Source: an uncultured Alphaproteobacteria bacterium
GTDB lineage: Bacteria > Pseudomonadota > Alphaproteobacteria > Bin95
Assembly: GCA_963807085.1 (NCBI GenBank)
Contig: CAWEBB010000026.1
Span: 314-64,313 of the forward strand
DNA length: 64,000 bases
Direction of reading: 5' to 3'
Position numbers and translations under genes: made by a program. Of the stretch, positions 27,303 to 31,117 are shown in pieces. How positions within the stretch are numbered: position 1 is the stretch's first letter; every line of letters starts with the position of its first letter. The notes below the pieces were generated by a model. The model did no database searches. It was not told where the DNA came from and worked only from the letters and a program-made list of their open reading frames with translations.

Positions 27303-28973
27303 CTAGGTGGCGACCGCAGCCGTCTCGCTAATGCGGTGTTCGAAGGCGGCGGTCATCAGGGCGCGCGTGTAAGCCTCTTGCGGGTCGTCGAACACCTGGC
27401 TGGCTCTGCCTTGCTCGACCACCTTGCCGTCCTTCATGACGATCACGTCGTGCGCCAGCGCCCGCACAACCTTGAGATCATGGCTGATAAACAGGTACGC
27501 CAACCGGTGCCTGCGCTGCAGTTCACGCAACAACTCCACGATCTGCGCCTGGACGGACATGTCGAGCGCACTGGTCGGCTCGTCCAGGACCACGAAGCGG
27601 GGTTTCAGCACCATCGCGCGGGCGATGGCGATGCGCTGGCGCTGGCCACCGGAAAATTCGTGCGGGTAGCGGTCCGCCATCGCGGCCTCCAGCCCCACCT
27701 CCTCCAGAACGCCGTCGATCATGCGGTCATACTCGGCCGTGGAGTCCGCCAGACGGTGCACGCGAAGCCCCTCGCCAATGATCTGCCGGATCGAAAGCCG
27801 TGGAGAGAGGGAGGAGAACGGGTCTTGGAACACGATCTGCATTTGCCGGCGCAACGGGCGGAGCGCCTTGCCGGTGTAGGCGCGCAAATCCTTGTCGCCG
27901 AAGCGCAGGCCGCCTTCCGCCCGTTCCAACCGCAACAGCGCCAGGCCGAGCGTCGTCTTGCCGCTGCCGCTCTCGCCGACGACGCCAACCGTATGCCCCT
28001 CCCGCACCCGAAGCGAGATGCCATCCACCGCCTTGATGTAGCCCACCGTCCGGCGCAGAACACCGCGCCTGATCGGAAACCAAACTTTCACGTCCTGTCC
28101 CTCGATCACCATCGGGGCATCCGCTGGCGCGGGGTCCGGTCGTCCTTTTGGTTCGGCCGCCAGCAGGTGGCGCGTGTAGTCGTGTTGCGGATGGTCGAAG
28201 ATCGCGGCGGTTTCACCGGTCTCGACGATTTGGCCTTTGGTCATGACGCAAATCCGCTCCGCCACCCGCCGCACAATGCCCAGGTCATGGGTGATCAGCA
28301 GAATCGCCATGCCGAGTTTTCGTTGCAGCTCCTCCAGCAACTCCAGGATCTGCGCCTGGATGGTCACGTCCAGCGCCGTGGTCGGCTCGTCGGCGATCAG
28401 CAGGTCCGGATCGTTGGCCAGCGCCATGGCGATCATGACCCGTTGCCGCTGCCCGCCGGACAGTTGATGGGGATAGCTGGCCAGCCGGCTTTCGGGGTCG
28501 GGGATGCCGACCAGCCGCAACAGCTCCAGCACGCGGCCCGGGTGCGCTCGGCGGAAAGTCCCTTGTGCAGCCACAGAACCTCGCCGATCTGCTTCTCGCA
28601 CGGTGTGCAGCGGGTTCAGGGCCGTCATCGGCTCCTGAAAGATCATCGCGACACGGTTGCCGCGGATCTGATGCAGGGTCGCGCTTCGGCGCGCCGATCA
28701 TCTCCTGCCCCTCGAAACGGATCGACCGCCCGGGATGACTGGCCATCGGATAGGGCAGCAACTGGAGCACGATCAGCGCCGTGACCGATTTGCCGGAGCC
28801 GCTCTCGCCGACCAGGGCAACGGTTTCGCCCTTGTGAATGTCGAACGAGACGCCGCGCACGGCCGACGACCTCTGGCCGCCGTTGTCGGAAGGCGACATG
28901 CAGGTCGCTGACCTGCAGCAAAGGCTCACCCTTCGCGTTTCGCCCATTCCGCCGTTTCGCTCATAGGCCCAAT
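27303..28973 (-). pseudogene. yejF: YejF-type dual-NBD ABC ATPase (peptide/microcin-C-type importer), 3 frameshifts in the first ~330 nt
   Basis: The C-terminal 447 aa are intact and hold two full Walker A/B plus LSGGQ NBDs (GESGSGKTTLGLALL..., [15 protein letters not shown]..., FSGGQRQRIAIARAM...). The N-terminus is spread over three frames: [12 protein letters not shown] / [13 protein letters not shown] / [28 protein letters not shown] / [15 protein letters not shown]. The ATG at 28973 overlaps the yejE stop. Confidence 0.7.
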
Positions 28974-29991
28974 TTCCTGGGATCGAACGCGTCACGTACT
29001 GCTTCGCCGACGAATACCAGCAGGGTCAGCAGCACGGCGATGGTGACGAAAGCCGGTCAGGCCCAGCCAGGGCGCCTGGAGGTTGGCTTTGCCCTGGGCC
29101 AGCAACTCGCCCAGCGAGGGCGAGCCGGGCGGCAGGCCGAAGCCCAGAAAATCCAGGCCGTAAGGCTGGTGATGCCGCCAGCAAGGAGAACGGCAGAAAG
29201 GTGAGGGTGGCCACCATGGCATTGGGCAGCACGTGCCGGAAAATGATGGTGCAGGTCTCGCACACCCAGCGCCCGCGCGGCCCGGACATAGTCGAAATTG
29301 CGGGCACGCAGGAATTCCGCCCGCACCACGTCCACCAAGCCCCATCCAGCCGAACAGCAGCATGATGCCCAGAATGCTACCAAAAACCCGGTTGCACGAT
29401 CACGCTCGCCAGGATGATCAGCAGTAAAAAGGGTCGGCAGGCTCGCCCAAATCTCGATGAACCGCTGCCCCAGCAGGTCGAACCAGCCGCCGTAGAAGCC
29501 TTGCAACGCTCCGGCGCCCACGCCGACCAGGGAGCTCAACGCGGTCAGGGTCAGACCGAAAATGACCGAAATCCGGAAGCCGTAAATAAGGTTGGCGACC
29601 ACATCCCGGCCCTGGTCGTCGGTGCCGAGCCAATGTCGGCGCCGGGCGGCGACGGCGCGGGCTCTGTCAAGTCGCACTTGACGGTGGAATAGCTGTAGGG
29701 AACGGGCGGCCAGAGCATCCAGCCCTTCTCGGCGATCCTTTCCCCGCACATAAGGGTCACGGTAGTCGGCCTCGGTCAGGAACTCGCCGCCGAATTCCGT
29801 TTCCGGATAGCCTTCAAAGATCGGCAAATAGGCTGCGCCATCATACCAGACCAGCCCGGTTTGTCGTTCGACAGAAACTCGGCGAGCAGGCTGAGGCCGA
29901 ACAGGAAGACGAACAGCCAAAACGACCAATAGCCTCGCCGGTTCGCCTTGAAGTTGGCGAGCCGCCGCGCGGTCAGGGGAGACAGCGCCAC
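28970..29991 (-). pseudogene. yejE: YejE-type ABC permease, at least 6 frameshifts
   Basis: YejE-like blocks lie in four different frames: RRGYWSFWLFVFLFGLSLLAEF...; WYDGAAYLPIFEGYPETEFGGEFLTEADYRDP; EKGWMLWPPVPYSYS; LGTDDQGRDVVANLIYGFRISVIFGLTL...GALQGFYGGWFDLLGQRFIE; VVRAEFLRARNFDYVRAARALG; HVLPNAMVATLTFLPF; LDFLGFGLPPGSPSLGELLAQGKANLQAPWLG; ...[15 protein letters not shown] stop. Confidence 0.7.
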
Positions 29992-31117
29992 GCTTACGCC
30001 CCCCGCGTTTCGAAGTCGATGCGCGGGTCAATCACCACATACATCATGTCGCTCGATCAGGTTCATAACCAGTCCCATCAGGCCGAACACATACATGGTG
30101 GCGAACATCACCGGATAGTCACGATTCAGCGTCGGATTCGAAACCCAGCAGCCCCAGGCCATCGAGCGAAAAGATGGTCTCGATAAAGACGGACGCACCG
30201 AACAGAATGCCCACGAACGCGGCCGGAAACCCCGCCACGACCAGCAACATGGAATTGCGGAAGACATGGCCCCACAGCACCCGGCTCTCGGTCAGGCCCT
30301 TCGCGCGCGCCGTCACCACATATTGCTGGGATATCTGGTCGAGGAAACTGTTCTTGGTCAAGAGGGTGAGCGTTGCAAACGCGCCGATCATCATCGCGGC
30401 CAAGGGCAGCGTCAGGTGCCAAAAATAGTCGAGGATCTGCTCGCCCAGGCTCATCTGATCGAATCCCGGCGAAGTCAGCCCGCGCAAGGGAAACCAGTCA
30501 TAATAGTTGCCGCCCGCGAACAGGACGAGCAGCAGGATCGCAAACACAAAGCTGGGAATGGCGTTGCCGACGATAATCGCCCCGCTGGTCCATATGTCGA
30601 AACGCGAGCCATCCCGTACCGCCTTGGCGATGCCAAGCGGAATGCAGATCAGATAGGTGAGAAAGGTCGTCCAGAAACCCAGCGTGAGCGAGACCGGCAT
30701 CTTGTCAATCACCAGTTCGACCACGGTTTGGTCCCGGTAAAAACTCGTGCCGAAATCGAAGGTCAGGTAGCTGGTCATCATCTGCAAGAACCGTTCATGC
30801 ATCGGCTTGTCGAAGCCGTACTGCTGTTCCAGCTCCTTGATGAACTCGGGATCCAGTCCCTGTGCCCCGCGGTAGGCCGAGCTCGAACCGCTGTCGGATG
30901 CCCCCCGAGCCTGGCCGCTTCCCTGACCGCCGGCGAAATCACCGCCCCCCTGCGTGACACGCCCGATGGCACCGCCGCCCTCGCCGGTCAGGTTGGCAAT
31001 GGCCTGCTCCACCGGCCCGCCCGGGGCGACCTGGATCACCACGAAATTGATCACCATGATCCCGAACAGCGTCGGGATGATGAGCAACAGGCGGCGGATG
31101 ATATAGGCCAGCATCAA
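29984..31117 (-). CDS. yejB: YejB-type ABC permease, intact except for a frameshift ~15 codons before the stop
   Basis: 332-aa ORF (MMLAYIIRRLLLIIPTLFGIMVINF...). The last conserved stretch MYVVIDPRIDFETRGA is in another frame (30028..30267 ORF). Start overlaps the yejA stop (ATGA). Confidence 0.75.

Follow-up and report, generated by a model that had tools for sequence, protein, structure and literature searches.

The yej operon analysed here raises a plain question. In the window, by which we mean the whole 64-kb stretch of DNA under study, the minus strand between positions 32982 and 27303 carries yejA, yejB, yejE and yejF in a single direction, and the reading frames of the last three are broken many times over. 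Are these the remains of an importer that the organism has recently lost, or is the deposited sequence wrong? The order of the four genes matches that of the closest relative, L001, which is syntenic with the window and 81% identical to it at the nucleotide level.

Once corrected for frame, yejA-yejB-yejE-yejF is predicted to be an ordinary, functional ABC importer operon. By its sequence, the importer is assigned to the family of peptide/opine/nickel transporters, composed of one periplasmic binding protein, two permeases and one fused double ATPase. YejA matches the Pfam model PF00496 (SBP_bac_5) from position 7 to position 364 of 368 with 247.5 bits, which identifies it as a family 5 binding protein, and is 78% identical to its L001 orthologue over the full length; among the NCBIfam models, none specific to YejA gave a match. 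Frame-corrected YejB (370 aa) matches NF011712, 'microcin C ABC transporter permease YejB', with 535.8 bits (cut-off 445) over all 364 model positions, and frame-corrected YejE matches NF011596 with 486.7 bits (cut-off 439) over positions 4-339 of 341. For frame-corrected YejF, which has two ATPase domains, the top match is NF011713, aligned from position 1 to position 527 of its 529; the score of 744.3 bits falls short of the equivalog cut-off (834). The protein probably works like YejF, short of the strict equivalence to E. coli YejF that an equivalog score would confer. The operon thus shares its gene order and its family 5 binding protein with the YejABEF systems of E. coli and Alphaproteobacteria, which serve in the uptake of microcin C, peptides and antimicrobial peptides. 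Against those known systems, YejB and YejE pass their NCBIfam models over the full length whereas YejF is a best match below the cut-off, and three of the four genes cannot be translated as deposited.

Indels were called from a pairwise alignment with L001 and from a six-sequence MAFFT alignment of the window with L001-L005. Alignment to relatives at the nucleotide level was required since tBLASTN alone could not separate the frame segments, its matches merging across frames. Comparison with the orthologous locus in close relatives, which the preliminary description of this DNA had proposed as a check, gave a uniform answer: at each damaged site the frame is intact in all five relatives. The features and the indels assigned to each gene are collected in Table 1.

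Table 1. Features of the yej locus and frame-breaking indels relative to the five relatives (+, extra base in the window; -, missing base).
Feature	Coordinates	Strand	Description	Frame-breaking indels
yejA	31114..32982	-	Periplasmic substrate-binding protein; single ORF, intact, 622 aa	0 (alignment with L001)
yejB	29994..31117	-	Permease; clean over 31117-30136, then broken; conserved stop TAA at 29996-29994	30135 +1; 30055 +1
yejE	28961..29991	-	Permease; GTG start at 29991, TGA stop at 28963-28961; 10-11 indels	Upstream part: 29855 -1; 29745 +1; 29635 -1; 29424 +1. Compound site ~29398-29381: +4, read as +3 and +1 or as +2 and +2. Downstream part: 29339 +1; 29252 +1; 29176 -1; 29160 -1; 29051 +1
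yejF	27303..28964	-	Double ATPase; ATG at 28964 overlaps the yejE stop; clean over 28534-27303; intact remainder is a 447-aa ORF at 27303-28646	Five events in 28949-28535: ~28949-28936 net +16; 28886 +1; 28681 +1; 28599 +1; 28535 -1
Damaged tract	28535..30135	-	17-18 window-specific frameshifting indels in 1601 nt	
Imperfect 16-nt tandem duplication	28936..28952	-	GCGAAACGGCGGAATGG / GCGAAACGCGAAGGGTG; right after the yejF start codon	

Within the damaged tract the indels follow one another at a mean spacing of ~94 nt, and all of them are 1 nt long except the +4 near 29390 and the net +16 near 28940. The latter stems from the tandem duplication in yejF, which also creates an early TGA and is absent from all five relatives. 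Insertions outnumber deletions by 12-13 to 5 (~70% insertions; binomial p=0.01-0.02), and, leaving the 16-nt duplication aside, the tract has gained a net ~10 nt. Of the five deletions, four fall in short runs; many insertions, in contrast, do not extend a homopolymer, as with the A placed between G and G at 30055 and the C between G and A at 29252. The earlier suspicion of homopolymer errors is correct only in part.

The damage is sharply confined. The 64-kb window yielded 20 frameshifts, and 17 of them lie inside one 1.6-kb span (P ~6e-25), a rate of 10.6 per kb in the tract against 0.05 per kb outside it, some 220-fold. No frame-breaking indel was found in yejA, in the first 980 nt of yejB or in the last 1.23 kb of yejF, and the same holds for rpsL-rpsG-fusA-tuf. 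The tract opens with the last 47 codons of yejB and stops 143 codons into yejF. Because both edges fall in the middle of a gene, with yejA and 1.2 kb of yejF left untouched, the boundary is a physical one and not that of a gene or an operon.

These results revise the preliminary description in its details. It had reported about ten frameshifts in 1.4 kb (28640-30070); the cluster is real, and both its count and its span were underestimated. The fragmentation of yejE that it had noted stands as well, with at least 11 frame segments on alignment to relatives in place of at least six, and so does the broken 5' part of yejF, where five events in the first 430 nt replace four segments in the first 330 nt. 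The frame of yejB is lost ~47 codons before the stop, not 15 as had been thought. Its observations that yejA and the last part of yejF are clean and that every segment encodes conserved protein hold in full.

If the genes had been decaying, the protein sequence should have suffered with the frame. With the indels removed, identity to L001 is 89% for YejB, 85% for YejE and 88% for YejF, equal to that of the clean parts; the corrected proteins contain no in-frame stop, and each frame segment in the tract still codes for conserved protein. Divergence from L001 in 200-nt bins ranges from 0.15 to 0.22 inside the tract and from 0.15 to 0.26 outside it. At sites invariant among the relatives, changes specific to the window number 47 of 856 (5.5%) in the tract and 61 of 1357 (4.5%) in the flanks (p=0.31). 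Mutation-accumulation studies put neutral decay at 5-10 substitutions per indel, which predicts 45-91 extra changes at invariant sites where ~8.5 are seen (P <= 8e-6). At the amino acid level, unique changes at otherwise invariant positions are more frequent in the tract (27 of 380) than in the flanks (13 of 538). About 10 of the 27 adjoin indels, and the remainder include the radical YejE changes W108C, L98P and F177G, which are compatible with substitution errors and also with slightly relaxed constraint. Lineage-specific amino acid changes in the untouched yejA and yejF part are normal.

The same window holds single frameshifts in atpD (near position 43940), atpG (near 42960) and rplX (near 16490). 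The atpD product matches TIGR01039 in two different frames (positions 2-197 and 203-462), that of atpG matches PF00231 in two frames (positions 1-195 and 223-285), and the in-frame match of rplX covers only model positions 1-76 of 104. A free-living bacterium could not have lost all three of these genes, so the sequence must contain indel errors.

The positions of these isolated errors are telling. In Alphaproteobacteria, GANTC is the motif methylated by CcrM. An inserted T converts GAGTC to GAGTTC in atpD, and another converts GATTC to GATTTC in rplX; the frame junction of atpG contains GACTC, and the outermost indel of the tract, at 30135, is a C added to GAATC at a site where each of the five relatives also has GANTC. 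The motif covers ~0.9% of the window, and at least three of four events falling on it corresponds to P ~3e-6. Errors in nanopore assemblies are reported to cluster close to methylated motifs, GANTC in Alphaproteobacteria among them (PMC12710330, PMC12392509), and the isolated indels on GANTC would be typical of consensus errors from nanopore data. Most of the methylation-linked errors published so far are substitutions; those described here are 1-nt insertions. Within the tract only the first indel lies on a GANTC site and the other ~16 lie off it, so the tract needs a second, local cause.

We conclude, with a probability of about 85%, that the yejBEF frameshifts are an assembly artefact and not the marks of a dying gene, in line with the earlier preference for bad assembly over pseudogenisation. 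The indels are peculiar to the window and lie in one physical tract that crosses genes, their spectrum is one of 1-nt changes biased towards insertion, substitutions and stops of the kind left by decay are lacking, and essential genes carry indels as well; taken together these observations point to the assembly. The frameshifts would then be absent from the organism's DNA and would represent consensus errors over ~1.6-1.8 kb of a long-read assembly, most likely a nanopore one. The consensus of the tract may have been left near raw-read, unpolished quality, with ~1% indels and at most 1% substitutions, while the rest of the contig would have been polished to ~1 residual indel per 20 kb. The local cause could be a drop in coverage, a window in which polishing failed, or a gap closed with a single read or a handful of them.

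That long-read errors can break genes into fragments is a problem well recognised (PMC12007338). As in the residual errors of long-read (nanopore) assemblies, 1-nt indels here split genes that are otherwise conserved, indispensable ones among them. Residual error is usually scattered, however, and the density of ~1 per 94 nt over 1.6 kb, with no tie to a motif, sets the tract apart and suggests a local failure. That the errors are rich in insertions and often lie outside homopolymers is not the most typical profile of a polished nanopore sequence, and this counts against an artefact.

Among the alternatives, genuine inactivation is the most obvious. The yej operon may have been lost very recently, being dispensable or even harmful, for example through import of a toxic microcin C-like peptide, and the indels would then be fixed in the population. 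The frames are truly broken in the deposited sequence, the modest surplus of unique amino acid changes in the tract agrees with such a loss, and so does the known ability of E. coli to become resistant to microcin C by losing yejABEF. One frameshift already inactivates, so 17 could only build up neutrally, and they would bring 85-170 substitutions and several stops into 1.6 kb; none of this is seen. Decay would moreover spread over the whole operon, and no damage, only normal constraint, is seen in yejA, in most of yejB and in three quarters of yejF. The locus does resemble genuine pseudogenes in having several frameshifts where the orthologues of relatives are intact. Genuine pseudogenes are nonetheless deletion-rich and varied in indel size, and carry substitutions and stops as well, whereas yejE has 10-11 indels, mostly insertions, in 1 kb. 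Real bacterial pseudogenes show 300 insertions against 396 deletions, a mean deletion of ~19 nt and power-law sizes, and even the decaying genomes of symbionts carry ~4.6 indels per pseudogene (PMC6054270); the 1-nt, insertion-biased spectrum of the tract is the opposite of this natural pattern. With atpD, atpG and rplX frameshifted too, indel errors are in any case present in the window, and we regard real inactivation of the operon as improbable. A single burst of localised frameshift mutagenesis, arising from one error-prone repair, replication or gap-filling event over the 1.6-kb tract, could in principle produce sharply bounded lesions and no surplus of substitutions. Known error-prone polymerases, though, give mainly substitutions and -1 frameshifts in runs, and no polymerase or repair pathway known to us in bacteria yields ~1% 1-nt insertions over 1.6 kb with few substitutions. 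The indels of essential genes at methylation motifs on the same contig already show a technical source, and a burst is very improbable.

A technical artefact might also have arisen by another route, either as a blend of two co-assembled strains or because reads of a paralogue or of a related population were cross-mapped during polishing. As every one of the closest relatives is a metagenome-assembled genome, the window may itself be metagenomic; mixed pile-ups are common in such material, and ABC-transporter genes are rich in paralogues. Blended haplotypes usually leave paired +1/-1 artefacts and many substitutions, however, whereas the tract has a net gain of ~10 nt on top of the 16-nt duplication and no rise in substitutions. 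Cross-mapping should be worst in the most conserved genes, and of these tuf, rpsL and fusA are clean; the tract, for its part, has no paralogous copy within the window. This route is unlikely, if the least so of the alternatives. Programmed recoding or RNA editing that restores the frames during transcription or translation would fit the finding that every segment still codes for conserved protein. It would have to act at 17 sites of both signs (+1 and -1) that share no slippery or other motif, that are spread over parts of three genes and end within a gene, and at none of which the relatives have a shift. To our knowledge no such system exists in bacteria, and we give this explanation practically no weight.

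Among GATC, GANTC, CCWGG and homopolymers, no motif fits more than a few of the tract indels. Self-BLAST of positions 28400-30250 against the window returned the segment itself and one weak 43-nt match, with no paralogue or repeat, and no anomaly of composition was detected over the tract, the GC content and skews being like those of the flanks. Scans of the window for tRNAs and Rfam families gave no match.

Looking outside the window, we found no other record in exact-product look-ups of fusA, rpsG and rpsL. In a search with corrected YejE against 5.8 billion proteins, the L001 protein, 87% identical, was the closest; the top-scoring match, P0001, was considered as a near-identical relative and proved to be an unrelated 472-aa protein with an internal duplication, encoded on a 1.9-kb contig. 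Metagenome DNA was also scanned with patterns that span indel sites and allow an optional base at each. One such pattern gave no match, and the other retrieved four relatives at ~69% nucleotide identity, all of them without the insertion. The collections searched hold no sequence of the same species and thus no directly observed copy of the intact allele.

If the frameshifts are an artefact, their significance is one of quality control only. A complete yejABEF importer would have three of its genes misannotated as pseudogenes, and atpD, atpG and rplX on the same contig would also have to be corrected; the position of the isolated errors on GANTC suggests methylation-aware re-polishing of the assembly. 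The locus would further illustrate that, within a short stretch of such an assembly, errors can become ~200 times as dense, which makes pseudogene counts and inferences of gene loss from such genomes unsafe without checks at the level of reads. If the indels are instead real, they would reveal a process of localised frameshift mutagenesis undescribed in bacteria and an importer freshly destroyed, before substitutions had accumulated.

Stretches that a codon model had called non-coding were inspected for further dense clusters of indels. Positions 34747-35316, considered as a hidden cluster, are intergenic, and positions 62977-63960 are an intact HNH-type ORF in low-GC DNA. As for the tract, its AT skew is the one usual for permease genes.

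Scanning one genome per species recovered 575 related loci. The one closest to the yej operon lies on a 5.2-Mb alphaproteobacterial metagenome-assembled chromosome (OZ244951.1, hereafter L001); it is 81% identical to the window at the nucleotide level, is syntenic with window positions 22065-34905 and encodes intact YejB (370 aa), YejE (343 aa) and YejF (547 aa). Indels were called from a global nucleotide alignment with L001 and from a MAFFT alignment with L001 and four further relatives. The frameshifting ones fall in a minus-strand four-gene operon, are unique to the window in both alignments and occupy positions at which five of five relatives keep the frame, as found in the comparison with orthologous loci that the preliminary description had proposed. 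That description counted about ten frameshifts in 1.4 kb; the dense cluster stands, but the alignments give 17-18 events in 1601 nt and place the loss of frame in yejB about 47, rather than 15, codons before the stop. Elsewhere in the 10.8-kb alignment with L001, indels occur only as in-frame sets in variable linkers or as intergenic changes, and rpsL, rpsG, fusA and tuf, downstream of the operon, are all intact. One relative (L002) carries an insert of ~200 nt between yejB and yejE (its positions ~9130-9335) that is absent from the window and the other relatives.

Genes of the yej operon, indels unique to the window (+, extra base in the window; -, missing base) and frameshifts in other conserved genes
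Feature	Position in window	Strand	Description
yejA	32982-31114	-	single ORF, 622 aa
yejB	31117-29994	-	
yejE	GTG 29991 to TGA 28963-28961	-	
yejF	ATG 28964 to 27303	-	start overlaps yejE stop
yejB indels	30135 +1; 30055 +1	-	
yejE indels, 5' part	29855 -1; 29745 +1; 29635 -1; 29424 +1; ~29398-29381 +4 total	-	
yejE indels, 3' part	29339 +1; 29252 +1; 29176 -1; 29160 -1; 29051 +1	-	
yejF indels	~28949-28936 net +16; 28886 +1; 28681 +1; 28599 +1; 28535 -1	-	net +16 is an imperfect 16-nt duplication
atpD split	43336-44773, junction ~43938-43945	+	+1 frameshift
atpG split	42364-43250, junction ~42955-42975	+	-1 type shift in variable linker with GACTC; base approximate
rplX (L24) frameshift	16289-16717, junction ~16487-16495	-	142-aa ORF

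Insertions outnumber deletions by 12-13 to 5 in this tract (p=0.01-0.02), and every event is exactly 1 nt except at the compound sites near 29390 and 28940. Of the five deletions, four lie in 2-3-nt runs, and many of the insertions are not homopolymer extensions. A codon model trained on the long ORFs of the window and applied in a seven-state Viterbi segmentation of all 64 kb detects only three within-gene frame switches outside the tract. Thus 17 of 20 frameshifts share one 1.6-kb span (P ~6e-25), a rate of 10.6 per kb versus 0.05 per kb elsewhere, or about 220-fold.

The window was then projected onto L001 coordinates, with inserted bases dropped and deleted ones filled. The corrected YejB, YejE and YejF are 89%, 85% and 88% identical to their L001 counterparts and contain no in-frame stops, in agreement with the earlier statement that each segment still encodes conserved protein; the coding information of the tract has not decayed. 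YejA belongs to solute-binding protein family 5 (PF00496, 247.5 bits), and corrected YejB (535.8 bits against NF011712, cut-off 445) and YejE (486.7 bits against NF011596, cut-off 439) each cover the full model length. In predicted function the locus is an unremarkable YejABEF-type importer, although YejF, with its best match to NF011713 at 744.3 bits, remains below the equivalog cut-off of 834 for strict equivalence.

Nucleotide divergence from L001 in 200-nt bins is 0.15-0.22 in the tract and 0.15-0.26 in its flanks. At positions invariant among the five relatives and more than 6 nt from any indel, window-unique changes number 47 of 856 (5.5%) in the tract versus 61 of 1357 (4.5%) in clean yejB and yejF, an excess of ~8.5 changes that is not significant (Fisher's p=0.31). 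Window-unique amino-acid changes amount to 27 of 380 inside the tract versus 13 of 538 outside; some 10 of these are within 9 nt of an indel and mostly reflect alignment effects, and the others include a few radical replacements (W108C, L98P and F177G in YejE; G74R and R125W in YejF) compatible with low-level substitution error.

The three isolated frameshifts interrupt atpD (F1 ATP synthase beta), atpG (ATP synthase gamma) and rplX. The atpD ORF at 43336-44430 matches TIGR01039 positions 2-197, reaching ...LYHEMIE, and positions 203-462 continue in another frame at 43949-44773; at the junction, GAG TTC GGG CGT stands in place of the GAG TCG GGC GTG expected for the canonical ...HEMIESGVI..., leaving one extra T. 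For atpG, PF00231 positions 1-195 fall in the ORF at 42364-43035 and positions 223-285 in that at 43056-43250. The rplX ORF matches only positions 1-76 of the 104 in TIGR01079 and runs 100 nt past the rplE start, with its conserved C-terminus in the other frame and GATTTCG present where GAT TCG restores frame. Because loss of both ATP synthase subunits and L24 by a free-living 62% GC alphaproteobacterium is not plausible, the window sequence contains indel errors; its ribosomal and atp operons are otherwise intact.

GANTC is the CcrM methylation motif in Alphaproteobacteria and is depleted in the window (82 sites versus ~218 expected from base composition, covering ~0.9% of it). The atpD and rplX errors each insert a T within a would-be GAGTC (giving GAGTTC) or GATTC (giving GATTTC), the atpG junction includes GACTC, and the outermost tract indel, at 30135, adds a C to GAATC at a site that is GANTC in five of five relatives. 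Three of four events are on GANTC (P ~3e-6); none of the other ~16 tract indels is at GANTC, and they share no motif. Errors in nanopore assemblies have been reported to cluster near methylated motifs, including GANTC (PMC12710330; PMC12392509). From this reported pattern and the placement of the isolated errors in the sequence, we infer that the assembly is probably nanopore-based, from natively methylated DNA.

These sequence comparisons suggest that the frameshift cluster is not a real biological feature (probability about 0.85). A single frameshift kills a gene, after which further frameshifts accrue only neutrally, along with substitutions, and in mutation-accumulation studies bacterial substitutions exceed indels by ~5-10 to 1. 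If the operon had really been inactivated, 17 indels should have been accompanied by another 45-91 changes across the 856 invariant sites, which the observed total excludes (P <= 8e-6), and no stop codons have arisen in the tract. Decay should also spread over four genes, but the lesions end abruptly mid-gene at both sides and the clean parts of the operon keep normal lineage-specific constraint. Natural pseudogene indels are deletion-biased and varied in size (in one study of 151 pseudogenes, 396 deletions totalling 7421 nt versus 300 insertions totalling 1340 nt, their sizes following a power law; PMC6054270), unlike the insertion-biased, almost exclusively 1-nt events here. The tract departs from a genuine pseudogene in three of four testable respects, and we consider recent inactivation improbable; a real localised mutagenic burst is more improbable still, and the tract shows none of the features of programmed recoding. 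The preference for bad assembly over decay in the preliminary description is supported by the absence of stops and of a substitution excess, by the 1-nt, insertion-biased indels bounded mid-gene, and by the atpD, atpG and rplX errors.

Most likely, the tract is a 1.6-1.8 kb stretch left at roughly single-read or unpolished consensus quality, with ~1% indel and at most 1% substitution error. Coverage may have dropped there, polishing of that window may have failed, or a gap or join may have been bridged by very few reads; other parts of the contig would have been polished until some one error remained in every 20 kb. Blending of strains or cross-mapped polishing is a less likely origin, because the tract has no excess of substitutions and because tuf, rpsL and fusA, the genes under the strongest conservation, are clean. 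Long-read errors that fragment genes are a recognised problem (PMC12007338), which the cluster resembles except in its extreme local density; in practice it serves to flag this assembly for quality control.

The collections searched yielded no further copy of the locus from this organism, exact look-ups of fusA, rpsG and rpsL returned no record, and metagenome scans with DNA patterns spanning indel sites retrieved only relatives at ~69% identity, all lacking the insertion. The best protein relative of corrected YejE is that of L001 (87%). A 472-aa YejE-like permease from a JGI metagenome contig (P0001; L081, 430-1848) seemed a better hit but was rejected as unrelated: its C-terminal half is duplicated, and it outscored all true relatives solely because it matched the query twice.

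Elsewhere in the window, rplP (L16; 17732-18292, minus strand) encodes 186 aa, with the L16 model complete at residues 2-127 and, after it, an acidic tail of ~59 residues that reaches the rpmC start. A cytochrome c-like ORF of 253 aa (33972-34733, minus strand) ends in C-terminal tandem peptide repeats (AEGAQEQPN / AEGTEKPPN). At 62800-64000, GC falls from ~65% to 49-55%, possibly marking foreign or island DNA, and an intact 327-aa ORF (62977-63960, minus strand) carries an HNH_2 endonuclease domain (35 bits).
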